Made by a program: the position numbers and the translations under genes. Below, piece by piece: positions 9,834-21,625 of a DNA stretch of 64,000 bases (the stretch's first letter is position 1; every line of letters begins with the position of its first letter). Under the pieces are notes generated by a model, which saw only the letters and a list, made by a program, of their open reading frames with translations, ran no database searches and was not told the origin of the DNA. The stretch is from Candidatus Hydrogenedentota bacterium (lineage in GTDB: Bacteria; Hydrogenedentota; Hydrogenedentia; Hydrogenedentales; SLHB01): assembly GCA_045863295.1 (NCBI GenBank), contig BTWA01000031.1:9218-73217 (forward strand), in the 5' to 3' direction.

Positions 9834-12392
9834 TTAAGGGGTGGGATCCGGCGCGGCAGGCGTTTCGGGTTCGACCGGTTGAGGGAAGACCGTGCCGTCC
9901 GGCGAAACGACTTCCTGGTTCTCGGGCAATACGGGCACGAACGGACGGCTGGCTTCGAAGTCCGCGCGTAAGCCCGCTTCCATGGCCGCCTCCGACACGT
10001 CCGTCACGAACCGTGCCGGCGCATTGGGATGCGCGCGCACAATGACGGTGGGTTTGACTTTACCGGCCGCTGCCTCGAAGAAACGCTTGCGCAGAGCCTC
10101 CAACGTGACAAGGTGGCCTTCGGAATACAGCGTTCCCGCCTCGCCGATGGATACGCTGATTTCATTCGCGTTGCCCGTAATCTTCTGTTCCATGCGCTGC
10201 CAGACGTTCTTCTGCGAACGGCGAAGTTCGTCCGCCGCGTCTGCATCTACCTGGGCGATGGTAGTAGCCTCGGGCTGCGTGAATTCATCCACAATAGTGG
10301 GCGTGATGAAGATAATCAGTTCCCGTTCCTGATTGTCCCGCGAGGTCGTCTTGAACAAGCGGCCCACCAGGGGTATATCGCCAAGCACCGGCACGCGATC
10401 GACGTCATTGCCAATGCTCGTGGCGCGCAGACCGCCAATTACAATGGTCTGGCCGTCGCGCACAAGAATCTGTGTTTCGGCCTTGCTCTGCGTCTTCTCC
10501 GGTACCGTGCTTTCCAGTCCGCCCGCAAGTATGATCTTGTCTTCGGCAGTGCTGTCTTCGGCTTCGATATCCATTAGCACATTTTCTTCCCCATTAATTC
10601 GGGGCAATACTTTCAAAATGGTGCCAACCGGAATGAATTGAATCTGGCCGGGCACCACGCGTCCGGATGCCACATCACTGTTGTCGTCAACAACCACGCC
10701 TTGTGTCGTGTACCCCACGGATTGAAACGCACGATCAGTGGTGTTTTCGAAGATGGCTTCCTGCCCGTCCTGAACCGTCACGCGCGGGCGGGCCAGTACA
10801 GACAACGCACCCTGCCGGTCCAGGTAATTCAGCACCACCGCCACGCGATTGCCCTTGAAATCGGGATCGAGGATGTATTCGGGATCGTCCGGTATCGGTG
10901 CCGCTTCATTGTTGTTGGCGTCATCCAGGAATTGATACAAACGTCCCCAGCCGTCGCGGTAAAACTCCCGGTAAGGCAATCGGCCCACGCTAAAGCGTTG
11001 CCCCTGCTCAGGCGACGCAGTATAGTCGGGCGTATTCTGGCCGCTCTGAATGGCAAACGGGACTCCGGCAATCTCATCGAAATACGACCAATCGATCCCG
11101 AACTCGCGCGTAACGTTCTTTTGCGCCGCCACAAGATAGGCCTCAATCTGCACTTGGCGGCCCTTTACATCCCACGACTGAATCATCTGATCGATCTGCG
11201 CAATGCGCTCCGGTATGGCCGTTACCGTCACTTGATGAGTCAATTCATTGATGGTGACCGTGCCCATTTCTTCCGGAACCATGCCCTCCAACCGTTCCAG
11301 AACGATTTCCGCGTCCGCGTAGTTCAGAGTCCACGTGCGCGTCTCAAGGGCAACATCCAGCGCTTCCACGACCTCGGCGATCTGTTCCTGGCGCGAAGGC
11401 AAGTCCGTGATTACAAGCGCGTTCACGCGAGGATCCACGTGCGCTACGCCTCGCTCAGACAGCAGGGCCGTCACCGTCTCCAGCAGCTTGCTTGCCTCCA
11501 GATGGTTCAGATTGAACACGCGCGGCGCAAGTGGCACATCCAGTGCGGTTACCGTTTGTTCCATGATTCGGATATTGTCGGCGGTATCCCAGACAAAAAT
11601 CTTTCCCGTACGCGGATCCGGCACGATGCGTCCCGTGGAGGAAAGCATCGTCGTTAGAATCGACTGAATGTCCAGCACGTCCGCGTGGCGGATATCGAAC
11701 TCGGATTTGACGGTTTCGCCGTATTCGCTGTCCAGGTATTCGGTATCCGTCATTACATACAGAAACCGGTTTGCCTCATCGAAATCGTAATACACCCCGT
11801 TAAAGCGCAACACTTCCAGCAATTCCTTTGCGTGCGCGCCCTTCAACCAGAAGCGGACCTTTTTCTCTTCGACACCCGGCGAAGCGACAATGTTCCAACC
11901 GGTGGCCTGGGCGATGGCGTCGAGTACTTCGACCACGGGTTTGGGCTCCAGCGCCGCATCCAGATCGACCACGTCTCCTTCATCCGGCACCTCGTTGGTC
12001 GGAACCGGCCGGTTCAAGATGAGATCCAACGGTCCTACAGTGACCCCAGGCGCCGTTCGGCGCGAACCCGTGACCACGTGGACGCCAGCCGGTGGAGTGG
12101 GTGTAGCGCCCGGCCCACTTGGGACCGTGGTCGAGGATCCGGTCGATGGAGAAGTTTGCCCACCCGCTGCGTACGGCGTCGGCGCGACCGTGCCCTGGCT
12201 TACCACTTCTAAGACGTTGCTCTGCAATTGCGGTTCAGGATTGGGCTGAACCGGAGTCTGTTGCGCTCCTGCGTAGGGTAAGGTAAATAGCGCCCCAACA
12301 ACGAAAAGCGTTCGGTTGAGTGCGAGCTTGCTCAGGGATGTACAACGGATTCGGGTCACGGCCGGCCTATTTCCTTCTTCTAAACTGGTCAT
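9834..12392 (-). CDS. gspD: T2SS secretin with C-terminal ExbD/TolR-like domain
   Basis: Signal peptide, Pro/Thr linker, repeated N-domains (DPRTGKIFV, DPRVNALVI), QVQIEAYLV, DGQTIVIGGL, VPVLGDIPLVGRLFK, ELIIFITPTIV. Confidence 0.93.
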   Translation of the reverse strand: MTSLEEGNRPAVTRIRCTSLSKLALNRTLFVVGALFTLPYAGAQQTPVQPNPEPQLQSNVLEVVSQGTVAPTPYAAGGQTSPSTGSSTTVPSGPGATPTPPAGVHVVTGSRRTAPGVTVGPLDLILNRPVPTNEVPDEGDVVDLDAALEPKPVVEVLDAIAQATGWNIVASPGVEEKKVRFWLKGAHAKELLEVLRFNGVYYDFDEANRFLYVMTDTEYLDSEYGETVKSEFDIRHADVLDIQSILTTMLSSTGRIVPDPRTGKIFVWDTADNIRIMEQTVTALDVPLAPRVFNLNHLEASKLLETVTALLSERGVAHVDPRVNALVITDLPSRQEQIAEVVEALDVALETRTWTLNYADAEIVLERLEGMVPEEMGTVTINELTHQVTVTAIPERIAQIDQMIQSWDVKGRQVQIEAYLVAAQKNVTREFGIDWSYFDEIAGVPFAIQSGQNTPDYTASPEQGQRFSVGRLPYREFYRDGWGRLYQFLDDANNNEAAPIPDDPEYILDPDFKGNRVAVVLNYLDRQGALSVLARPRVTVQDGQEAIFENTTDRAFQSVGYTTQGVVVDDNSDVASGRVVPGQIQFIPVGTILKVLPRINGEENVLMDIEAEDSTAEDKIILAGGLESTVPEKTQSKAETQILVRDGQTIVIGGLRATSIGNDVDRVPVLGDIPLVGRLFKTTSRDNQERELIIFITPTIVDEFTQPEATTIAQVDADAADELRRSQKNVWQRMEQKITGNANEISVSIGEAGTLYSEGHLVTLEALRKRFFEAAAGKVKPTVIVRAHPNAPARFVTDVSEAAMEAGLRADFEASRPFVPVLPENQEVVSPDGTVFPQPVEPETPAAPDPTP

Positions 12393-12439: not shown

Positions 12440-12928
12440 TTAGCGCTGCCGGGGTAATTGGATCGTGTACTCCACCCCCAAGTGTTGCTGCGAAAAAATG
12501 ACCCCGTCCCCAAGTATCTCCTTGATGACACAACCGCGAACCGACTCGCCCACCCGCAGATATTCGCCACGGGGATTGTCAGGCTGTACGATCAATACCC
12601 GCAAGTCCGACCCACTTCCCATCTGCGCACGCTTGGCAATCACGTCTTTCAAGATGGCCGCAAGATCGGGCGGCGGAGCCACCGTCTGTGGAGGCGGAAT
12701 CAATGAATCCCATAAACCGGGTTTGGCATTGAGCGCCGTCCGCATGGCGGCGAAATCGACATTTCGTTCGTCGCCTTCGTCCATAGCCGGAGGCGTCACC
12801 TGATCGAGCGTCGAAAGATACACGTTGCGTTGCGCGCGAACAGGATTCCACAGGGCCACATACGCGCCCAGTACGGCGATAAGAGCCAATGTGCCAAATC
12901 CAATTCGTCCCAACAGAGCGGATCTCAT
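12440..12928 (-). CDS. T2SS assembly-platform protein, GspC/PilP-like
   Basis: N-terminal TM, Pro-rich linker, C-terminal beta domain (YLRVGESVRGCVIKEI). Lies between the gspM-like gene and gspD. Confidence 0.6.
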   Translation of the reverse strand: MRSALLGRIGFGTLALIAVLGAYVALWNPVRAQRNVYLSTLDQVTPPAMDEGDERNVDFAAMRTALNAKPGLWDSLIPPPQTVAPPPDLAAILKDVIAKRAQMGSGSDLRVLIVQPDNPRGEYLRVGESVRGCVIKEILGDGVIFSQQHLGVEYTIQLPRQR

Positions 12929-13989
12929 GGTTTCCCCTCGGCCAGCACATTCACCCGATCCAGGGTAACGGCCGTTCCTGCTTGTTCAATAACGATCACG
13001 GGAACCGCAAGGCTGACACCGTTTCCGGCAGGCACGTTAAAGCGCAATCGGTATCGGTAGAGTTTTCCATCGTTCTTCATGGGCATGCCGCCCTCAAACG
13101 CCTTCAGCGTGAACGCGTCCTGCAGTTCAAGGCGCGCCGTCCCGGTGACAGCCGCATCAACGTCGATCGTCAGCGACACATCGGGGGGTGCCTCCACAAT
13201 TTGATAGATGGCGGCGCCTGCGCTCAGCGCCTTGAAATGCGCGGCCTGCGATCCTTCGGAGTAGGTGGACTTGTCCCGTGTCGCTTCGCAGGCTGGCGCG
13301 TTCCACGAGGGAAACTGCGCGGCCACATCATCCCAGGATTCAAACCCTCCGTTGACGGCGAGGTTCTCAACTTCGTTTACCTCGGGAGCAGTAGTCGCGT
13401 CTGATTTACTGTCGATGATGGTACGCGTCACCGTGATCTGGGCGGTTACCAGTTTTTCCAGCGGCTGGCGGGTCAATACGAGGTTGTCGATACGAAATGC
13501 CTGCGAACTTTGCATCAGCCGTTGCAGGAACTCGACGAGGTTGCGCAAATCGGTCGGCTCGGTGCGGAACGAGACTTGATACGCGCGATACCCAAGGCCG
13601 GACGTGTCCATTATGCCTCGAGGCATTTGCCGGATTTCGACCAACTGCGATCCCGGCGCCGGCTGCGTTTCCGAGGCAGTGGGAGAGAGGTCGCGCATGG
13701 CAAGGCGGGCGATTTCCCGGCGCAACCGATCGTGTATCTCTTCTTCGGTCCAAACGCTGGAGTGCTGCTCGGCCATCGCGTTGTATTGACGATCGACCAC
13801 CTCGGACAGGAGCGCCTGTTCCGAGTAGAACAAGAGATCCTGCTGTTTCTGCAGAATGGTTTCGTCCAACTCGCCGATCACAGACAGGCATCGCAACACA
13901 ATCAATGCACCGGCCGCGGACACCAGGACGCCCGCCGTCACCATGGCGAGCCGCTGCTCGCGATCGGAAAGCTTATTCCACCACGTCAT
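12925..13989 (-). CDS. GspM/PilO-like protein with C-terminal carbohydrate-binding-module-like domain
   Basis: WNKLSDREQRL followed by TM and coiled coil; ferredoxin-like segment LRNLVEFLQRL...FRIDNLVL; then ENLAVNGGFESW. Confidence 0.7.
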   Translation of the reverse strand: MTWWNKLSDREQRLAMVTAGVLVSAAGALIVLRCLSVIGELDETILQKQQDLLFYSEQALLSEVVDRQYNAMAEQHSSVWTEEEIHDRLRREIARLAMRDLSPTASETQPAPGSQLVEIRQMPRGIMDTSGLGYRAYQVSFRTEPTDLRNLVEFLQRLMQSSQAFRIDNLVLTRQPLEKLVTAQITVTRTIIDSKSDATTAPEVNEVENLAVNGGFESWDDVAAQFPSWNAPACEATRDKSTYSEGSQAAHFKALSAGAAIYQIVEAPPDVSLTIDVDAAVTGTARLELQDAFTLKAFEGGMPMKNDGKLYRYRLRFNVPAGNGVSLAVPVIVIEQAGTAVTLDRVNVLAEGKP

Positions 13990-15466
13990 CGGAGCCTTCC
14001 TCGCCCTCTTCTTGAGCAGACGCATCGTCCTTGGGAAACGGCATCACGATTTCGTAATCGAACACCTGCTGGCCGTACTCCTGATCGGCGCGCCACGGGC
14101 CGGTGCTGGCCTGGCTCAAACGCGGCATGGATTCCAAACCGATGCGGCGTAATTCCGCCGCAAGATTGTCGGCACTGCCGGTGTAACCGGTGCGTCCCCG
14201 GAGCCGGGCTTCCTCGCCGTGCGTGTACGAGAACTCCGTGATATTCATGCCGCCTGGCATTTGATCGGAAATGACCGACAGAATTTCGAGCGCGGACCCT
14301 TTGCGATCCAGGTGTTGTTTCAACCGCATCAGCTGTTTGCGCTTGGAAGTTACGTCGTCGGCAATAGGCTGCACAGCGTCGATTCGGCTCTGCAACTCCG
14401 CAATGTACGCACTGCGCTGGTAGACCGCATATCCGTAAACGCACCCCAGCGCGAGCACGTTTGCCAAAACGGTCAACGCCGCTCTTGTCACGATGCGCCG
14501 GGCGGCCAACTGCCGGCGTACGCGAAGCAGCGACGCAGGCACAAGGCTGATGCGGATAGGGGATCGATCCTGTGCCGCCACGGCCGCCCCCAGGGATACC
14601 ATGGGCAGCAGTCCGCCTACGGCATCCGTATGGGACATCAACGTTTGCGCAAAGCGCGCGGGGGCCACCTCCAAACCCGTAATGCCAGCCAGGGCATCCG
14701 CGATCCCACCGACTTGCACACAGTCCGAACTGACATAGACGGTATCTACGCCCTGACCGTCTTCCGATTCGCGTCGGTATGCGGCCAGTGACGTACGCAG
14801 TTCCACCGCCAGCTCTTCGATCGCTTCGGCATTGTCCTGCGTGTGTTCCGGCCACGACTGGGCGACTGCAATACCGCGGCTGTATTCGACACGGCCGCCA
14901 TTTAGAATCAAAATCTCAAGGCCGCCTGGCGCCAAATGCACAATGGCAAACCGCTCGTCGTTGCCTTTGCGGCCCTCAATGGCCGCCGCGGCAAGACACG
15001 CGGTGCTGACCAGGATGTGTTCCGCTTCGATGCCGGCTTGGCGCAACCAATCGACTTGTTCTTCCACCGTGTCGCGATGCGCAAACACGGCGAGGACCCG
15101 CGAATGCCCATCGGCCAGGCGCTGCAAAATGGCCTGATCCACGACGATTTCGTTTGCCGGGTAGGGCACGTATTCGCCGGCGCTCAGCGTGACCATGCCC
15201 TTGATTTCATCCGGATCCTGGGAAGGCAGCACGAGCATACGAGAAGTTAGTGTATGGCGCGGAAGCACGAGACACACGTCGTCCTCCGCAATGCGGTGGG
15301 TCTTCGCAAACGCCTTGAATCCGGCCGCTGGACTTGTATCGTCGCCCAGATTTGCGACGGTAAAAGTGGCGGGATCGATACTGCGGGGCGTGCGCTTCAC
15401 CCGAAGATGAACCACGCGTCCCGCATCGATCTGCACTATGCTGATTGTATTGGACTTGCGCGCCAC
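13973..15466 (-). CDS. gspL: GspL-like protein (actin-like PilM domain, TM, PilN-like domain)
   Basis: Cytoplasmic actin-like region, ISLVP motif, TM, coiled coil and periplasmic domain. Operon position. Confidence 0.75.
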   Translation of the reverse strand: MARKSNTISIVQIDAGRVVHLRVKRTPRSIDPATFTVANLGDDTSPAAGFKAFAKTHRIAEDDVCLVLPRHTLTSRMLVLPSQDPDEIKGMVTLSAGEYVPYPANEIVVDQAILQRLADGHSRVLAVFAHRDTVEEQVDWLRQAGIEAEHILVSTACLAAAAIEGRKGNDERFAIVHLAPGGLEILILNGGRVEYSRGIAVAQSWPEHTQDNAEAIEELAVELRTSLAAYRRESEDGQGVDTVYVSSDCVQVGGIADALAGITGLEVAPARFAQTLMSHTDAVGGLLPMVSLGAAVAAQDRSPIRISLVPASLLRVRRQLAARRIVTRAALTVLANVLALGCVYGYAVYQRSAYIAELQSRIDAVQPIADDVTSKRKQLMRLKQHLDRKGSALEILSVISDQMPGGMNITEFSYTHGEEARLRGRTGYTGSADNLAAELRRIGLESMPRLSQASTGPWRADQEYGQQVFDYEIVMPFPKDDASAQEEGEEGSDDVVE

Positions 15467-15474
15467 GACTAATC

Positions 15475-16440
15475 CTAAAACCCGCCCGGAATATCGTCCG
15501 TGCCTTCAACGCCTTCAGACCACTTGTGGATGACGGCCCCCTCGCCGGTAATTTCAACGACCGCCTTTACTTGCGCGCGTATTTTCCCTTGCCGCAAGGT
15601 GGCAAAGCCTGTCACTGTAAAGAAGCGCGATTCCAGTTTGCAATACCGGCTCAGCGGTGCCAGCCGTTCAGGACTCACCCGGGTCAGGCCCGAAATGACA
15701 TCAAAAGAACGAAACCGTCGATCGTCGGCGGTATTCAAATCGCCATCGGGTCCCGATCGGTAGGCGAGAATGGCGCTTACGATGTCCGAATCCAGATCGG
15801 GAACGGCTTCCAGCACCTCCTCTGAGGCCGTATTCACGTTGATGAGGCCGTCTCCGTACACAGTGAACCGTTCCCGCAGACCCGGAGAATCTTCCGATCC
15901 AAACCACGCGCGATCGGTCACGCCATCGAGATCGCGCACCTCTTCCACGGCGAGAAAAGGCTGGGTCGTATCGTCATCGTCGGAGAGTGGACCGCTACGC
16001 CGCCGCATGATGTCATTCACCGTGGTAAAACTGAGTTCTTCCAGTTCATCCAGTACGTCCTCCGGAGAATCATTCAGCGAGATGCGGCTTTCCTCATCGG
16101 TAATAACAGCCCTTGCCACGTCGCCGAGATACGATCCGGGATCACCCGGGCGGTACACCTTCAATGCGTTGATTAGGTCCGGATGCACCACCGAGACGGG
16201 AGGGGGCGTTTCCATATTGAGCGCATCGTATACTCCTTGCAACGCGGCTTGGTTACGCAACAAGGCAACCCCGTAGTTGCAGGCGCCTGCCGCCATATTG
16301 AGGCAACGTACGTGATCGCCGGCCGTGGCCGCGGCGCGATGATCCAGCAACGCGCGATGACCAAACCCCAGGGTCAACACCGTAAGTACAGCGAGTATCC
16401 AGATGACCGAGACCAACGCGAAACCTCGTTGCGCGTTCAC
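15475..16440 (-). CDS. gspK: Minor pseudopilin GspK
   Basis: G|FALVSVIW (no E5), DEESRISLN, INVNTASEEVL. GTG start overlaps the gspJ stop. Confidence 0.9.
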   Translation of the reverse strand: MNAQRGFALVSVIWILAVLTVLTLGFGHRALLDHRAAATAGDHVRCLNMAAGACNYGVALLRNQAALQGVYDALNMETPPPVSVVHPDLINALKVYRPGDPGSYLGDVARAVITDEESRISLNDSPEDVLDELEELSFTTVNDIMRRRSGPLSDDDDTTQPFLAVEEVRDLDGVTDRAWFGSEDSPGLRERFTVYGDGLINVNTASEEVLEAVPDLDSDIVSAILAYRSGPDGDLNTADDRRFRSFDVISGLTRVSPERLAPLSRYCKLESRFFTVTGFATLRQGKIRAQVKAVVEITGEGAVIHKWSEGVEGTDDIPGGF

Positions 16441-17195
16441 GGTTTCAGTACCTCCGTCTTGCCCAGCATTGGCTCTTCCAAGCGGGTGGAAGGCCCGTTG
16501 ACGTTGACAAACGCGGTAAACGTCGTGTCCCCGTCGTCGGCGTTCGGGTCGTACAGCGTGAGCCGCAAGCGAATACCCTGAGGCATGCCGTCGCCTTCCC
16601 CGAGGTGATCCTGCACAATGAACGCAACAGGAACCGGAGGCTGACCCGCCTGAGTGGCATCGGCCTCTTGTTCGAGGTCCGCCGGGGGTTGCCACAAGTA
16701 TTCGATACTGAAATCACGCACGCCGTTCGCAAGGTCAAAACTTCGCCGAAGCCCCAGGCGCACACGCGTCCGATCGATCTTGCCACCTTCCGGCGGGCGC
16801 GAAGGCAACGGATCTTCCACCACGCGTTCTTCGCGTACCAGCGTTCGTCCTTTCTGGGTTGCATCGTTTCGCAGCCGGTAGCGGATCCACAGCACCTGCG
16901 CGTCGGAACCTTCGGCGGGATGCATTGGCGGGGTCACCGCGTAAAAAACGAACTCCGAGTCTTCTCCCTCAAACAAATGGGCCGCGCCGGGCACGAAGTT
17001 CTGAAGTTCCCGCGTCATGATGGCCATGGAAGTGCGCGCGTCCTGGTACGTTTGCAGGTTGGCCTCCCCAAGGCGCCAAAGGCGAATACCCGAACTGAAC
17101 GCCATATACGCGGCCGTCATCACCAGTGTCAGAATCGACACGGCAACAAGCAGCTCGGCCAGCGTGAAGCCGCTATGGCGTGGGAGTCGCTGCAT
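16437..17195 (-). CDS. gspJ: Minor pseudopilin GspJ-like
   Basis: G|FTLAELLVAVSI prepilin motif; C-terminal PQGIRLRLTL. Confidence 0.85.
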   Translation of the reverse strand: MQRLPRHSGFTLAELLVAVSILTLVMTAAYMAFSSGIRLWRLGEANLQTYQDARTSMAIMTRELQNFVPGAAHLFEGEDSEFVFYAVTPPMHPAEGSDAQVLWIRYRLRNDATQKGRTLVREERVVEDPLPSRPPEGGKIDRTRVRLGLRRSFDLANGVRDFSIEYLWQPPADLEQEADATQAGQPPVPVAFIVQDHLGEGDGMPQGIRLRLTLYDPNADDGDTTFTAFVNVNGPSTRLEEPMLGKTEVLKP

Positions 17196-17658
17196 TCGTT
17201 CCAGTCTCTCTCGTCCAGATTCGTTCAGGTTGCACCAAGGTTTCCGCGGTGAGTTCATACGGCCGGCCTTGGCGTGTCCAAGTCACCGTCACGCGCAATC
17301 GGCCCAGGAAGCGCACGGGCAAATTGATTTGACCCAAGTGGGGCGGAAGCGTTTGCATGATCGGTGGCGGGTCGAAGGGCACGCGATCAACCGACCACGT
17401 ATAGTGGAATCGGCCGTCGGAATCGGAACACACCCCTTTTCCGGAGGTATCCACGGCGATTTTGGGCTCCAGACGCAGACGGCCCATCACATCCTGCAAA
17501 TGAAAGGAGGCTTCGGTGTAGTCCCGGGCGAGTGCGCGGGACACCAGCGCCTGGCCCAGTGCGCGGTTCACCGCGATGATGCCAATGCTCAACACGGCCA
17601 GCGCCACAAGCGTCTCAAGCAGTATCCAGCCGCCACGCCTGTCGCGTCGCGTGTTCAT
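17173..17658 (-). CDS. gspI: Minor pseudopilin GspI-like
   Basis: G|WILLETLVALAV; LRVTVTW. Operon order G-H-I-J-K. Confidence 0.82.
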   Translation of the reverse strand: MNTRRDRRGGWILLETLVALAVLSIGIIAVNRALGQALVSRALARDYTEASFHLQDVMGRLRLEPKIAVDTSGKGVCSDSDGRFHYTWSVDRVPFDPPPIMQTLPPHLGQINLPVRFLGRLRVTVTWTRQGRPYELTAETLVQPERIWTRETGTNAATPTP

Positions 17659-18236
17659 GTGCCTTCCTTGACGGTCAAGCGGCCTAGCCGGCCTTTGGTC
17701 GCGATGGTCAGTATTTTGCGCGGAGCAGTTTCTATCTCGACGGTCGCGTAATCACACGATCCGCTGGGGTAAAATGCGATGTAGTAAGCATCTCGATCAC
17801 CGTCCTTGGCGGCCTGCGGTTTTTTCATCTTGAGCGGTTCCGGCAGCGTGCGTCGCTCGCCACCCACTTCTTCCAGGCGTCCAAACGCTTTCTCGTCTTC
17901 GCCGGAGGCGATGCGGCGCATAGCCCAATACGAATTCGTTTCGTCGTCGATGTAAAAGCGATACTCGCGTGAATCGGCGACCGCGCGTTCCTGACAGTAC
18001 TTCATCAACGCCACCACGTCCCGCTGATAGCGATCCTTTCGAATCCAGGTAATCGAACCCTGAAAGAGCGGTACGACTCCCGCGGTGAGGATGGAGATAA
18101 TGGTCAAAACGACCAGCAGTTCCATCAAGGTGTAACCGCGAATCGCCTTCCATCCAAGTTCCCGCTTGGAAAAGCGTTTGCGATACGCATTGCTCGGATC
18201 GTCCGCCGTCGGCGCCTGGGTGCATTGCGTGCACAT
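17655..18236 (-). CDS. gspH: Minor pseudopilin GspH-like
   Basis: G|YTLMELLVVLTII; IAFYPSGS. Start uncertain. Confidence 0.82.
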   Translation of the reverse strand: MCTQCTQAPTADDPSNAYRKRFSKRELGWKAIRGYTLMELLVVLTIISILTAGVVPLFQGSITWIRKDRYQRDVVALMKYCQERAVADSREYRFYIDDETNSYWAMRRIASGEDEKAFGRLEEVGGERRTLPEPLKMKKPQAAKDGDRDAYYIAFYPSGSCDYATVEIETAPRKILTIATKGRLGRLTVKEGT

Positions 18237-18244
18237 GGCCCGAG

Positions 18245-18622
18245 TCAGTTTTCCGACCACACGGAAATGTCGTCGGGCGTGCCGGCCTGCCCGTCCATAC
18301 CCGCGGTAAACAAATCGTACGGGCGGTTCTTGCCCGGAGTTTTGTAGCCATAGGGCCGGCCCCACGGATCATTTTTGATCTGAACAACATACTGCTTCTT
18401 GCCGTTGACAAGGTCATTCAGTGCCTTCGGATACTGATCGTTGTTCTCTAGCGCATAGGCCTCGATCATGCGCTGATACGTGGACAAGTCCGATTTCGCG
18501 CGCGTCTCGCGCGCTTCCCGGCCGCGGCCCGCCACGCCAACGGCGACCGCGCCGGCCAAAATGCCGATGATGACCATCACCAGCAACAACTCAAGTAAGG
18601 TAAACCCGCTGTTCGATTTCAT
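18245..18622 (-). CDS. gspG: Major pseudopilin GspG
   Basis: G|FTLLELLLVMVIIGIL, DPWGRPYGY, TAGMDGQAGTPDDI. GGAGG ribosome-binding site. Confidence 0.92.
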   Translation of the reverse strand: MKSNSGFTLLELLLVMVIIGILAGAVAVGVAGRGREARETRAKSDLSTYQRMIEAYALENNDQYPKALNDLVNGKKQYVVQIKNDPWGRPYGYKTPGKNRPYDLFTAGMDGQAGTPDDISVWSEN

Positions 18623-18672
18623 GGTATCCTCCGGAATCACCCGCACGGAACGCGTCCGGGCAAGTCAGTTGC

Positions 18673-19887
18673 TCAAATCTGCATTGAACTCATCGTCAAC
18701 ATGGGCAACAACATCGCGATGACCAAAAACCCCACAATAACGCCCATGACCACGATCAATATCGGCTCCATCATCGAGGTCATGGCCTTCACGGCCCGGT
18801 CCACTTCGATGTCGTACGCGTCCGCCATGCGCTTGGTCACCGCGCCCAGACGACCACTTTCTTCGCCCACCGCAAAGGTGTTCACGACAATTGGCGGAAA
18901 ATAGCGGCATAGTTTTAGCCCCGCGCTGATACTATCGCCTTCCGCCACGCGCGCCTCCACTTTCGCAATTTCCGCCGCTACGGCTTTGTTGGTCAGCGTC
19001 TCCACCGTGATGCGCAACGACTGCAAGATCGGCACACCATTGTCCAGCAACGTGCCCAATGTGCGCGCAAACTGAGCGATCACATACTTGTGCGCCACAT
19101 TCCCGACAACGGGGACACGCAGGATCTGCCGGTCGATTTGCAGACGTCCAGCCTCGCTCCGCCAATAGGAAACGAAGGCCGACACGGCGAAGCCGATTGC
19201 GATAAGTACCGCCCACCAATAGCTGCCCATGAATCCGCATAGCAACATGACCATGCGGGTTGGCAGCGGCAAGGTTTGCTGAAAGTCCTGGAATACCGTG
19301 ATGAACTTGGGAAACACGAACGAAAGTAAAATGAAAATGGCAATCGATCCCATCAGCAACAGAAACGCCGGATAAATGGACGCGGTAGTGGCCTTGCCCC
19401 TCAGTTCTTCGTCCTGCTCGCCAAACGCAACGATGCGCCACATGACCTCGTCCAACATGCCTCCGGATTCGCCCGCGTTTATCAGGCTCACGACCATCGG
19501 TGAAAACACCTTCGGATGCCGTTCGAGCGCTTCGGCAAACGTGCTTCCCTTCTGCACGTCGTCACGAATCTGTGCAATAATCGTTTTCAGTTTGACATGG
19601 TCCGACTGCTCTTCCAGCGTGGACAGCGCGCGCGTCAATGGCATGCCCGATTCAAAAAGATTCGCCAATTGCCGAAAGAACACATTGCGGTCTTTGAGCC
19701 GGATCCGAGTCAGCTTGTTTCGCAAAACGTCTTTCTTGACCTTGCCTTCAAACTCTTCGACCGAGATGGGAAAATAGCCCAAGTCCCGCAAGCGCGCCAC
19801 TGCCGACTGCTGACTGTCGGCCTCGAGAACACCGGTGGAGGGTGCTTCCGTGGGCGATCGCTTTACCTCATACTTGAACTGGGGCAT
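18673..19887 (-). CDS. gspF: T2SS inner-membrane platform protein GspF
   Basis: FFRQLANLFESGMPL, AGESGGML, VGEESGRL, MEPILIVVMG. Confidence 0.95.
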   Translation of the reverse strand: MPQFKYEVKRSPTEAPSTGVLEADSQQSAVARLRDLGYFPISVEEFEGKVKKDVLRNKLTRIRLKDRNVFFRQLANLFESGMPLTRALSTLEEQSDHVKLKTIIAQIRDDVQKGSTFAEALERHPKVFSPMVVSLINAGESGGMLDEVMWRIVAFGEQDEELRGKATTASIYPAFLLLMGSIAIFILLSFVFPKFITVFQDFQQTLPLPTRMVMLLCGFMGSYWWAVLIAIGFAVSAFVSYWRSEAGRLQIDRQILRVPVVGNVAHKYVIAQFARTLGTLLDNGVPILQSLRITVETLTNKAVAAEIAKVEARVAEGDSISAGLKLCRYFPPIVVNTFAVGEESGRLGAVTKRMADAYDIEVDRAVKAMTSMMEPILIVVMGVIVGFLVIAMLLPMLTMSSMQI

Positions 19888-21625
19888 GTGCCGCTTCCGG
19901 GAAATCCAGCGCGTCCGACTCCGCGGTCACGCGCATGACTTCCTCAAATGTCGTTATTCCGGCGCAAATTCGCGCCCATCCCGCCTGGCGCAGCGTCCGC
20001 ATTCCTTCCTGCACGGCCTTTCGCTTGATGATTGTCGAAGCAGCCCGCTCGATGGTCAGTTCCTTGATAGTGCCGGAAAACGGCAGGATCTCATAGATCG
20101 CTACGCGGCCCTTGTAGCCGGTATTGCGGCAAGCGTCACACCCACGGCCCCGGCGGAACGTAATACCTGAAACCGAGGCGCGCGTCGCCCCGAAATCGCG
20201 CAGTAACGTCTCGTCCGGCTCGTAGGCTTCCGAACACTGCTTGCAGATGGTCCGCACCAACCGCTGAGCAACCGACGCTATCATGGTGCTTGCGATTAAG
20301 AAAGGTTCCACGCCCATATCCGTGAGTCGCGTCACCGCCCCGGCGGCATCGTTGGTATGCAGCGTGCTGAATACCAAGTGGCCGGTCAGACTCGATCGAA
20401 TTGCCATTTCCGCCGTTTCAAAGTCCCGGATTTCGCCCACCAGCATGATGTCGGGATCGTGCCGCAGCATGGACCGCAGCGCTGTGGCGAAGTCGAATCC
20501 AATCTGGGGCACGATCTGCATCTGCGAGATGCCCTTCAATTGGTATTCAATGGGATCTTCGACAGTGATGATCTTGTGTTCCATGCGGTTGAGTTTGTTC
20601 AACGCCGCATACAAGGTGGTGGTTTTACCGCTCCCCGTCGGCCCCGTAACGAGTATCATGCCGTGCGGCCGCGTAATGAACGTGTTGAAAATCGCAAGGT
20701 CGCTCTCGGCAAATCCCAACTGCTCCATCGTCAGAAACATGGAGGAACGATTCAATATGCGTAGATTGACCGTTTCGCCGTGCGGCGTAGGCAACACCGA
20801 AACGCGCAAGTCAAATTGACTGGCGCCCAGTGACGCACGGATCTTGCCGTCCTGCGGAAGGCGCTTTTCCGCGATGTTCAGATTCGCCATAACTTTGATG
20901 CGCGACACGATGGCGGCATGAAATCCCCTAATCGATGCCGGCGTCGGCACATTGTGGAGAATGCCGTCGATGCGGTACCGGACGCGGAGCTCGTCTTCAA
21001 ACGGCTCCATGTGAATATCGGTCGCACCGGACTGAATCGCTTCCGATAACAGTTCGTTAACGAACTTGATGATGGACGCGTCGATGCTGTCGTCGCCCAG
21101 GTCGGATCCCGCCGCCGAACCATCGAGTGTCAACACCGTTGCGACGCTGTCGCTGTCGCTGAGAATGCGCTCCACGGTGTCCGCGCCGACGCCATACAAG
21201 GCTTTAATGGCACGCTTGATCTCGTCCGGGGCGGCCACCACCGCCTCCACACGCGTCTTCAACACCATGCGAAGGTCGTCAAGGAGGTGGTGGTTCAGCG
21301 GATCACTGACGGCTACGACGAGCGTTCCGTTCCTTTCCTGCACCGGCACGCAGTTGTAGTGCGTGGCGTAACGCGCGGGCATTTTCTTTACCAGCGCCGG
21401 ATCCAACTCTTCCTTGGACGGAGCGACAAACCGCATTTCACAAAAAGCGGCGAGGGCTTTGTACACAGATTCCGCTGTGGCAACCCCTGCGGATACCAGC
21501 GCACTGGGCAGGTCGCGGCCGGTGGCTGTGCATTCCTGCCGGATGCGGCCCAGCGTTGCCTCATCTACAAGGCCTTCCCGGACCAGATGTTTTTCCAAAC
21601 CTCTCTCGACAGCCAAAAGTGCCAC
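19868..21625 (-). CDS. gspE: T2SS ATPase GspE
   Basis: Walker A GPTGSGKTT, TVEDPIEY, RHDPDIMLVGEIRD, GHLVFSTLHTN, tetra-Cys motif. Confidence 0.96.
   Translation of the reverse strand: MALLAVERGLEKHLVREGLVDEATLGRIRQECTATGRDLPSALVSAGVATAESVYKALAAFCEMRFVAPSKEELDPALVKKMPARYATHYNCVPVQERNGTLVVAVSDPLNHHLLDDLRMVLKTRVEAVVAAPDEIKRAIKALYGVGADTVERILSDSDSVATVLTLDGSAAGSDLGDDSIDASIIKFVNELLSEAIQSGATDIHMEPFEDELRVRYRIDGILHNVPTPASIRGFHAAIVSRIKVMANLNIAEKRLPQDGKIRASLGASQFDLRVSVLPTPHGETVNLRILNRSSMFLTMEQLGFAESDLAIFNTFITRPHGMILVTGPTGSGKTTTLYAALNKLNRMEHKIITVEDPIEYQLKGISQMQIVPQIGFDFATALRSMLRHDPDIMLVGEIRDFETAEMAIRSSLTGHLVFSTLHTNDAAGAVTRLTDMGVEPFLIASTMIASVAQRLVRTICKQCSEAYEPDETLLRDFGATRASVSGITFRRGRGCDACRNTGYKGRVAIYEILPFSGTIKELTIERAASTIIKRKAVQEGMRTLRQAGWARICAGITTFEEVMRVTAESDALDFPEAAHAPVQV

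Follow-up and report, generated by a model that had tools for sequence, protein, structure and literature searches.

The secretin gene at the end of a type II secretion system (T2SS) operon from a Candidatus Hydrogenedentota bacterium encodes, behind its β-barrel, a C-terminal domain that sequence profiles and predicted structures identify as homologous to the periplasmic domain of ExbD and TolR, not as a chance likeness. The operon lies in a 64,000-nucleotide stretch (contig BTWA01000031.1, positions 9,218 to 73,217), referred to here as the window. The domain covers residues 742 to 813 of the secretin (positions 9954 to 10169, minus strand) and has no transmembrane helix. A preliminary description of the sequence had placed it at 9955 to 10166, which is essentially exact.

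A secretin fused to an ExbD/TolR-type domain

The secretin gene (positions 9834 to 12392, minus strand; 852 amino acids plus a stop codon) forms one stop-free frame of 852 codons when translated. Its product matched Secretin (PF00263; 144 bits; E value, 4.5e−42) and, in three stretches, Secretin_N (PF03958; 122.9 bits) in Pfam. The best NCBIfam model was GspD (TIGR02517; 209 bits), with PilQ ranking behind it. This score lies below the equivalog cutoff of 351.35, and by sequence the protein is a divergent GspD-like secretin rather than an equivalog by TIGR02517. The β-barrel core delimited by PF00263 (residues 524 to 702; positions 10287 to 10823, minus strand) ends in ELIIFITPTIV. Another 150 residues continue beyond this motif, as a polar helical stretch followed by NEISVSIGEAGTLYSEGHLVTLEALRKRF...TVIVRAHPNAPARFVTDVSEAAMEAGLRADF, and translation confirmed that this peptide is in frame at the place first reported for it.

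Resemblance of this peptide to the ExbD/TolR pattern had been proposed from the sequence alone, and profile comparisons bear it out. When the tail was searched alone, PF02472 was matched with 26.4 bits (E value, 7.9e−6), above the Pfam cutoff of 25.4, whereas the whole secretin scored 24.0 bits and fell below it; residues 738 to 809 aligned to profile positions 48 to 119 of 128. The tails of all six close homologues also matched PF02472 at E values of ≤1 (best, 2.2e−6). Searching 1.84 billion representative proteins with a profile built from six tails gave 81 matches at E values of ≤1e−3, which were classified by Pfam. The first 48 were 39 proteins with a secretin domain and the tail behind it and 9 short fragments. 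The other 33 comprised 24 PF02472 proteins, among them ordinary ExbDs of 132 to 145 amino acids, together with 6 fragments and 3 clear false positives with cadherin, Sel1, or cuticle repeats. Using hhalign, 42 tails aligned to seven canonical ExbDs over 72 columns with a probability of 98.05% (E value, 1.5e−13). At loose thresholds the tail profile also weakly matched the N-domain region (residues ∼219 to 266) of four secretins (P0004, P0008, P0010, and P0032), probably by chance similarity between small α/β units.

Predicted structures gave the same answer. The last 149 residues were modeled with AlphaFold2 from a 42-row alignment, with a mean predicted local distance difference test score (pLDDT) of 84.7. 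The model shows a long helix followed by a strand-strand-strand-helix-strand-helix-strand arrangement at tail residues 41 to 111, where pLDDT values reach 94 to 97. In a Foldseek comparison of this tail model with the PDB, the top five matches were periplasmic domains of E. coli ExbD (two chains of 8p9r, 8vgc, 8vgd, and 8pek). Template modeling (TM) scores by target were 0.78 to 0.81 for four of these chains and 0.61 for 8pek, with a root mean square deviation (rmsd) of 2.3 to 2.4 Å over 72 to 73 columns; the next matches were unrelated HIV integrase cores with E values of >0.01. A second model, of residues 500 to 852 (barrel and tail; mean pLDDT, 75.3), was compared using VIA-align and matched TolR (5by4; Z score, 7.9 over 85 residues; 2jwk; Z score, 6.0) and ExbD (8p9r; Z score, 7.8; rmsd, 2.2 Å over 72 residues), its barrel part being covered by secretin structures (residues 527 to 709; Z scores, 9.5 to 7.9). 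The ESM Atlas model of the window secretin likewise aligned to ExbD/TolR clusters, with TM scores of 0.76 to 0.79. Sequence-profile searches of the PDB using the 6- and 42-row tail alignments missed ExbD and TolR and yielded nothing beyond noise such as ribosomal protein L16 and a kinase (E values of ≥0.048). The link to solved ExbD and TolR structures rests on the fold comparisons together with Pfam and hhalign.

In the model of residues 500 to 852, the long helix splits into two (residues 708 to 727 and 730 to 739) ahead of the folded domain at 744 to 813. This predicted helix-turn-helix (residues 708 to 739; positions 10176 to 10271, minus strand) resembles the S-domain of solved secretins, whose alignments to the window protein extend up to residue 730. 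Of the 19 solved chains that match the window secretin, not one aligned past that residue. The ∼40 residues preceding the ExbD/TolR-type domain form a polar helix, and the PF02472 match begins only at profile position 48; the N-terminal transmembrane helix of ExbD and TolR, with its conserved Asp, is missing from the tail. In ExbD and TolR that Asp serves the proton path. Without the helix, the domain cannot itself belong to a proton-driven stator, and the window secretin contains an ExbD-type domain but is neither an ExbD nor a stator.

Two short motifs stand out within the tail. HPNAP (family consensus, HPRAP; positions 10017 to 10031, minus strand) occupies the loop predicted between the strand at residues 782 to 787 and helix 2, and PFVP (positions 9933 to 9944, minus strand) directly follows the last strand of the domain. 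H788, P789, A791, and P792 of the former and P817, F818, V819, and P820 of the latter were invariant in six of six homologues. Across the 42 tails, which are 23 to 50% identical to that of the window, tail residues G47 and G50 were invariant, and P86, P89, V116, and P117 were at least 90% conserved. The remainder of the window protein is a Pro/Glu-rich, unconserved, and probably disordered extension (positions 9837 to 9932, minus strand; pLDDT, 68 to 77). In its relatives, the sequence beyond PFVP is rich in Pro, Glu, and Ala and varies from a few to ∼270 residues; P0022 ends in ∼270 Pro/Lys-rich residues. One homologue (P0010, representing a cluster of four members) carries a SPOR domain appended after the ExbD-like tail. 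SPOR is a peptidoglycan-binding domain, and its position in P0010 fits a C terminus that reaches the wall.

Distribution in the phylum Hydrogenedentota

The nearest named relatives of the window secretin are from Candidatus Hydrogenedentota, as was every tail match that carried an organism name; many matches carried none, and the tail may also occur in other phyla. A locus search from the six-row tail alignment reached just five loci, all closely related and from Hydrogenedentota. A profile of 42 tails, applied at E values of ≤1e−8 to 135 genomes of the phylum, matched 118 of them, including 80 of the 86 high-quality genomes, and covered 57 of 66 genera. A search for the secretin-ExbD architecture across genomes had been suggested as a test for misassembly, which its recurrence in 118 genomes rules out. 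The fusion is real, old, and under selection.

One match per genome was found, except in G125, where two matches on a single strand are separated by 2.6 kb (contig C27, 8354 to 11362) in frames of 845 and 839 amino acids, suggesting that the tail-bearing secretin has been duplicated in tandem. Eight of the 17 genomes missed by the profile belong to a single genus, and no secretin orthologue was found at E values of ≤1e−20 in any of the four genomes of this genus that were searched. In G043 and G038 a contig end truncates the secretin gene, whereas nothing was matched in G119 and the match in G060 was only weak; G042, G071, and G090 were left out of the follow-up. The last two, G001 and G002, are the only genomes outside the order to which the window belongs, and both carry secretin orthologues without the tail.

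A possible fastening crown

We tentatively favor a passive role, at slightly short of an even chance, in which the domain would fasten the secretin to the cell wall, to neighboring subunits, or to both. In solved secretins the S-domain packs against the outside of the barrel, on its periplasmic part. With the S-domain in that place, one ExbD-like domain per subunit would give a peripheral crown beneath the outer membrane. This crown might bind peptidoglycan glycan strands and so tie the multimer to the cell wall. Its domains might also, or instead, pair or capture strands of their neighbors through the loop before helix 2 and the edge strand, clamping adjacent subunits together. The crown would then do a job that in other secretins is handled by separate proteins (pilotins, TsaP, or AMIN domains).

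Both kinds of contact have precedents in ExbD and TolR. ExbD monomers touch through the loop before helix 2, and the resulting dimer takes up a proline-flanked TonB strand, which joins the last strand of each sheet (PMC10907165). Transient binding to the glycan chains of peptidoglycan is described for ExbD, and TolR attaches to peptidoglycan once it has rearranged (PMC10771500). Judging by topology, the two best-conserved motifs of the tail, HPxAP and PFVP, would occupy the places of the dimer loop and the strand-capture site of ExbD, respectively.

Several points weigh against this proposal. The tail-less orthologues of G001 and G002 show that this T2SS can exist without the domain, and the contact of ExbD with peptidoglycan is weak as well as transient in PMC10771500. 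A 15-subunit ring, as in most of the solved T2SS entries matched, cannot be fully paired by 2-fold dimers. The models are of monomers and do not reliably place the domain with respect to either the barrel or the wall. A two-copy complex prediction for tail residues 36 to 125, run without controls, scored 0.06 and 0.20, where the mark is 0.42, and speaks neither for nor against self-association.

A second reading, rather unlikely by our estimate, is that the domain is a built-in pilotin or assembly aid, standing in for the pilotin lipoprotein by chaperoning the S-domain and helping monomers to reach the outer membrane and oligomerize. Pilotins bind the S-domain helices in Klebsiella- and Vibrio-type systems, and here the domain directly follows the S-domain-like helices. 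The PulD-PulS (6hcg) and AspS-GspD (5zdh) entries were among the structure matches. The window secretin has a signal peptidase I-type site (AGA/QQ) and no lipobox cysteine, and therefore is not self-lipidated. Pfam recognized no lipoprotein-like gene in the operon, although no genome-wide search for a pilotin gene was made. To our knowledge, however, no chaperone or Lol-targeting role is known for ExbD/TolR domains, and the orthologues without a tail in G001 and G002 also count against this role.

Tail-less orthologues and the ExbB-ExbD-TPR-VWA module

G001 and G002 represent two different families. Their secretin orthologues (735 and 811 amino acids) are 34 to 41% identical to the window protein over residues 66 to 726 and end ∼60 residues after the barrel. 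Upstream lie the same pseudopilin, GspK, GspL-like, GspM-like, and GspC-like genes as in the window. Directly downstream, on the same strand and with gaps of 0 to 106 nucleotides, both genomes encode ExbB, ExbD, a TPR protein of 784 to 792 amino acids, and a VWA protein. As queries, the four G001 proteins matched neither the window nor any of 31 related loci, 19 of which extended at least 7.5 kb downstream of the tail. The window secretin has no ExbB, TolQ, or MotA channel gene beside it, the ExbB genes of its genome being on contigs C8, C28, and C35.

The same queries did identify the module of the window's own genome on contig C28 (E values, 1e−38 to 1e−106). Here ExbB, ExbD, a TPR protein of 815 amino acids, and a VWA protein are encoded (L037, 10979 to 16448; L038, 136 to 6660) on the same strand as pilMNOPQ and ∼2.7 kb upstream of it; a single GHMP kinase gene lies in between, and the PilQ secretin has 1121 amino acids. 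A 779-amino-acid protein with no Pfam match precedes ExbB in this module. The TPR protein was found in 126 of the 135 genomes, including all eight of the genus in which the four genomes searched had no secretin orthologue. In three genomes where it shares a contig with the tail, the two are 47 to 821 kb apart; otherwise the module is on other contigs. Being nearly universal and retained in that genus, the module has a job independent of the T2SS.

Since the module stands beside the tail-less orthologues and is not beside the tail in the 19 loci, fused tail and adjacent module form a complementary pattern in this sample, of a kind that hints at a connection in function. The case for it is weak, because it draws on only two outgroup genomes, the module is nearly universal, and the tail has no special similarity to the module ExbD. 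The tail profile scored 10.6 bits against the ExbD next to the G001 secretin, 16.7 against the module ExbD of the window's genome, 24 against another paralogue from that genome, and 43 against an unrelated ExbD. In a tree the module ExbDs formed their own clade (Shimodaira-Hasegawa-like approximate likelihood ratio test support, 98) with the tails outside it, although this was a quick search on 100 domain pieces and 77 columns, with 55 of 97 branches open and four spurious secretin N-domain rows on a long branch.

Origin of the tail by a deletion that fused the secretin to a downstream exbD, as arranged in the outgroups, was considered and is unsupported, as the window's genome keeps an intact module. 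It is further disfavored by the module-type ExbD scoring lowest with the tail profile among the ExbDs tested, the C8 paralogue aside. An ExbB-ExbD-ExbD operon on contig C35 of the window's genome (G000; 18442 to 20005) encodes a second ExbD with an HPDAP loop motif resembling HPxAP. It was rejected as a general partner of the tail, being found in 41 of 135 genomes (E values of ≤1e−10) compared with 118 of 135 for the tail.

This distribution bears on a third reading, which we consider improbable, in which the tail is a dock on the outer-membrane side for the ExbB-ExbD-TPR-VWA module. Its partner there would be either the real ExbD, through pairing of the two periplasmic domains, or the ∼800-amino-acid TPR protein, through capture of one of its strands, so that the proton motive force would act on the assembly, opening, or positioning of the secretin without TonB. 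In its favor, both outgroup T2SS operons end in a tail-less secretin followed by the module, the complementary pattern holds across the 19 tail-bearing loci, and the module of the window's genome lies close to another secretin operon. ExbD domains are moreover homodimerization and strand-capture modules (PMC10907165). Nothing observed speaks for gating of the secretin by such a motor, which the preliminary description had raised beside a wall anchor and a pilotin substitute. Against it, the outgroup arrangement may simply be shared by descent, the module persists where the secretin is absent and lies far from the tail where both occur, and neither the profile scores nor the poorly resolved tree ties the tail to the module ExbD. 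The real ExbD is also tethered to the inner membrane, whereas the secretin C terminus is near the outer membrane, making the reach uncertain. A more specific version, which we rate as slightly less probable still, would have this housekeeping motor act directly on the T2SS secretin as a force link without TonB. The two would be cotranscribed outside the window's order, and within the order the secretin's own ExbD-type domain would pair with the motor ExbD or share its TPR ligand, the proton motive force powering or timing assembly or opening.

It is less probable again that the domain is a dock for strand capture, its edge strand binding an extended, proline-flanked segment in the way that ExbD binds the TonB D-box; the segment would come from a secreted protein or from the GspC-, GspL-, or GspM-like proteins. 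ExbD takes a proline-flanked strand at its last β-strand (PMC10907165), and this last strand is present in the tail and is followed by PFVP. The 162-amino-acid GspC-like protein of the operon contains a proline-rich linker, but no partner motif was identified, and the two residues between the prolines of PFVP are too few for a D-box-like strand. In addition, T2SS substrates pass through the lumen of the secretin and not along its outer face.

Finally, an assembly artifact or a decaying, functionless remnant of a neighboring exbD can be dismissed as extremely improbable: the whole-protein PF02472 score is 1.4 bits under the cutoff and exbD lies two genes downstream of the secretin in both outgroup genomes, but the fusion is a single open frame, recurs with invariant residues throughout the phylum, has a confidently predicted fold, and coexists with an intact ExbB-ExbD-TPR-VWA module elsewhere in its own genome.

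The T2SS operon and its surroundings

The secretin gene is the last of a codirectional T2SS operon with the order gspE, gspF, pseudopilin, gspK, gspL, gspM, gspC. Upstream of the gene for the 162-amino-acid protein, the operon extends over positions 12925 to 21625 (minus strand), and its genes were assigned using Pfam. These encode GspE (T2SSE; 19868 to 21625), GspF (T2SSF; 18673 to 19887), two pseudopilins with N-methylation motifs (N_methyl; 16437 to 18365), GspK (T2SSK; 15475 to 16695), a PilM/GspL-like protein (PilM_2; 13973 to 15466), and a GspM-like protein of 366 amino acids (T2SSM; 12925 to 14025), all on the minus strand. The T2SSM match spans only residues 13 to 70 of the GspM-like protein, leaving a C-terminal extension of ∼290 residues with no family match. 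The open reading frame for the 162-amino-acid protein (12440 to 12928, minus strand) begins with a membrane anchor. Pfam gave no match for this protein, which is GspC/PilP-like by position and composition only; a weak tblastn match was found at the equivalent operon position in G001.

The start codon of the secretin is uncertain (positions 12264 to 12392); the longest frame encodes 852 amino acids, compared with 841 in the ESM Atlas version and 727 in that of the protein collection (P0003). The mature N terminus, AQQ(S/T)PxQPxPxP, is kept among homologues. Downstream of the secretin, Pfam identified a short-chain dehydrogenase (SDR) gene and a Na+/H+ antiporter gene on the opposite strand. No sign of a defense or phage function was seen, although PADLOC and PHROGs were not searched.

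Comparison with known systems

Secretins form the gates in the outer membrane through which type II and type III secretion systems, type IV pili, and exported filamentous phages pass their cargo or filaments. Their fastening and assembly vary by lineage and usually need separate helper proteins. In this mostly uncultured phylum, the requirement may have been met by fusing to the secretin a domain known until now from the Ton and Tol proton motors. Judging by titles and the openings of abstracts, none of the literature found, including that on type II secretion in Hydrogenedentota, describes a secretin that carries an ExbD/TolR domain. The secretin with a new accessory domain is accompanied here by a phylum-wide count with an account of the misses, the positions of the motifs, the SPOR variant, and the outgroup synteny with ExbB-ExbD-TPR-VWA. 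The ExbD/TolR periplasmic domain thus emerges as a reusable periplasmic module, and the tail offers a simple protein in which to ask what an ExbD domain freed from its motor binds, be it the wall, itself, or a captured strand. The occurrence of a fused domain in one order and of adjacent ExbB and ExbD in the two genomes outside it raises the testable question of whether proton-motor modules talk to secretins.

Compared with the periplasmic domains of ExbD and TolR (PF02472; 8p9r, 8vgc, 8vgd, 8pek, 2pfu, 5by4, and 2jwk), the modeled tail domain shares the β-sheet with two helices on one face (rmsd, 2.2 to 2.4 Å over ∼72 residues) and keeps both the edge strand and the loop leading into helix 2. 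It differs in lacking the N-terminal transmembrane helix and hence the Asp of the proton path, in having no ExbB/TolQ partner gene near the secretin, and in being fused to an outer-membrane protein rather than placed in an inner-membrane stator. The segment before the first strand, which in ExbD supplies a swapped N-terminal strand, is replaced by the S-domain helices of the secretin, and the loop reads HPxAP where the canonical ExbDs compared have an (A/G)D... stretch.

With GspD secretins that have an S-domain and a pilotin (PulD-PulS, 6hcg; GspD-AspS, 5zdh; Vibrio GspD, 5wq8), the window secretin shares the N-domains, the double-barrel core, the helical S-region, and its place as the last gene of the operon. 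Unlike the solved GspD secretins, it adds a folded domain of ∼72 residues and the conserved PFVP motif. Peptidoglycan-binding accessories do exist for secretin machines, namely, TsaP and AMIN domains, and an entry for PilQ bound by TsaP (6ve2) was among the structure matches. The likeness to TsaP (LysM) around PilQ, or to the AMIN domains of PilQ, is a functional analogy only, that of a wall-binding module at the periphery of a secretin, with wall binding by the tail being our proposal. The folds are different, and TsaP is a separate protein and AMIN is N-terminal, whereas the domain described here is C-terminal and fused.

Other ExbD periplasmic domains free of the membrane anchor were encountered outside Ton and Tol stators. 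The window's genome encodes on contig C11 (∼86.2 to 89.2 kb; L001, 4220 to 7236) a BlaI-type repressor followed by an 867-amino-acid BlaR1-M56 sensor with PF02472 (E value, 9.7e−10) and two Big_5 domains, which is another such anchor-less case. Two metagenomic proteins of 1047 and 1551 amino acids (P0081 and P0086) combine in one polypeptide a BlaR1-M56 peptidase, one or two ExbD domains, and, at the C terminus, a secretin domain, and P0084 and P0085 combine TonB_C with ExbD. In four proteins (P0057, P0059, P0063, and P0072), one of them from Candidatus Methylacidiphilales, a FecR domain precedes a tandem array of two to eight ExbD periplasmic domains; ExbD repeats without FecR were also seen (P0058, P0060, P0062, P0069, and P0070). 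These BlaR1-M56 (with Big_5, TonB_C, or Secretin) and FecR fusions resemble the secretin tail in using the anchor-less domain outside a stator. In them, however, the ExbD domain belongs to sensors anchored in the inner membrane or stands N-terminal to the secretin domain, as in P0081 and P0086, whereas in the Hydrogenedentota protein it forms the C-terminal addition to a canonical T2SS secretin.

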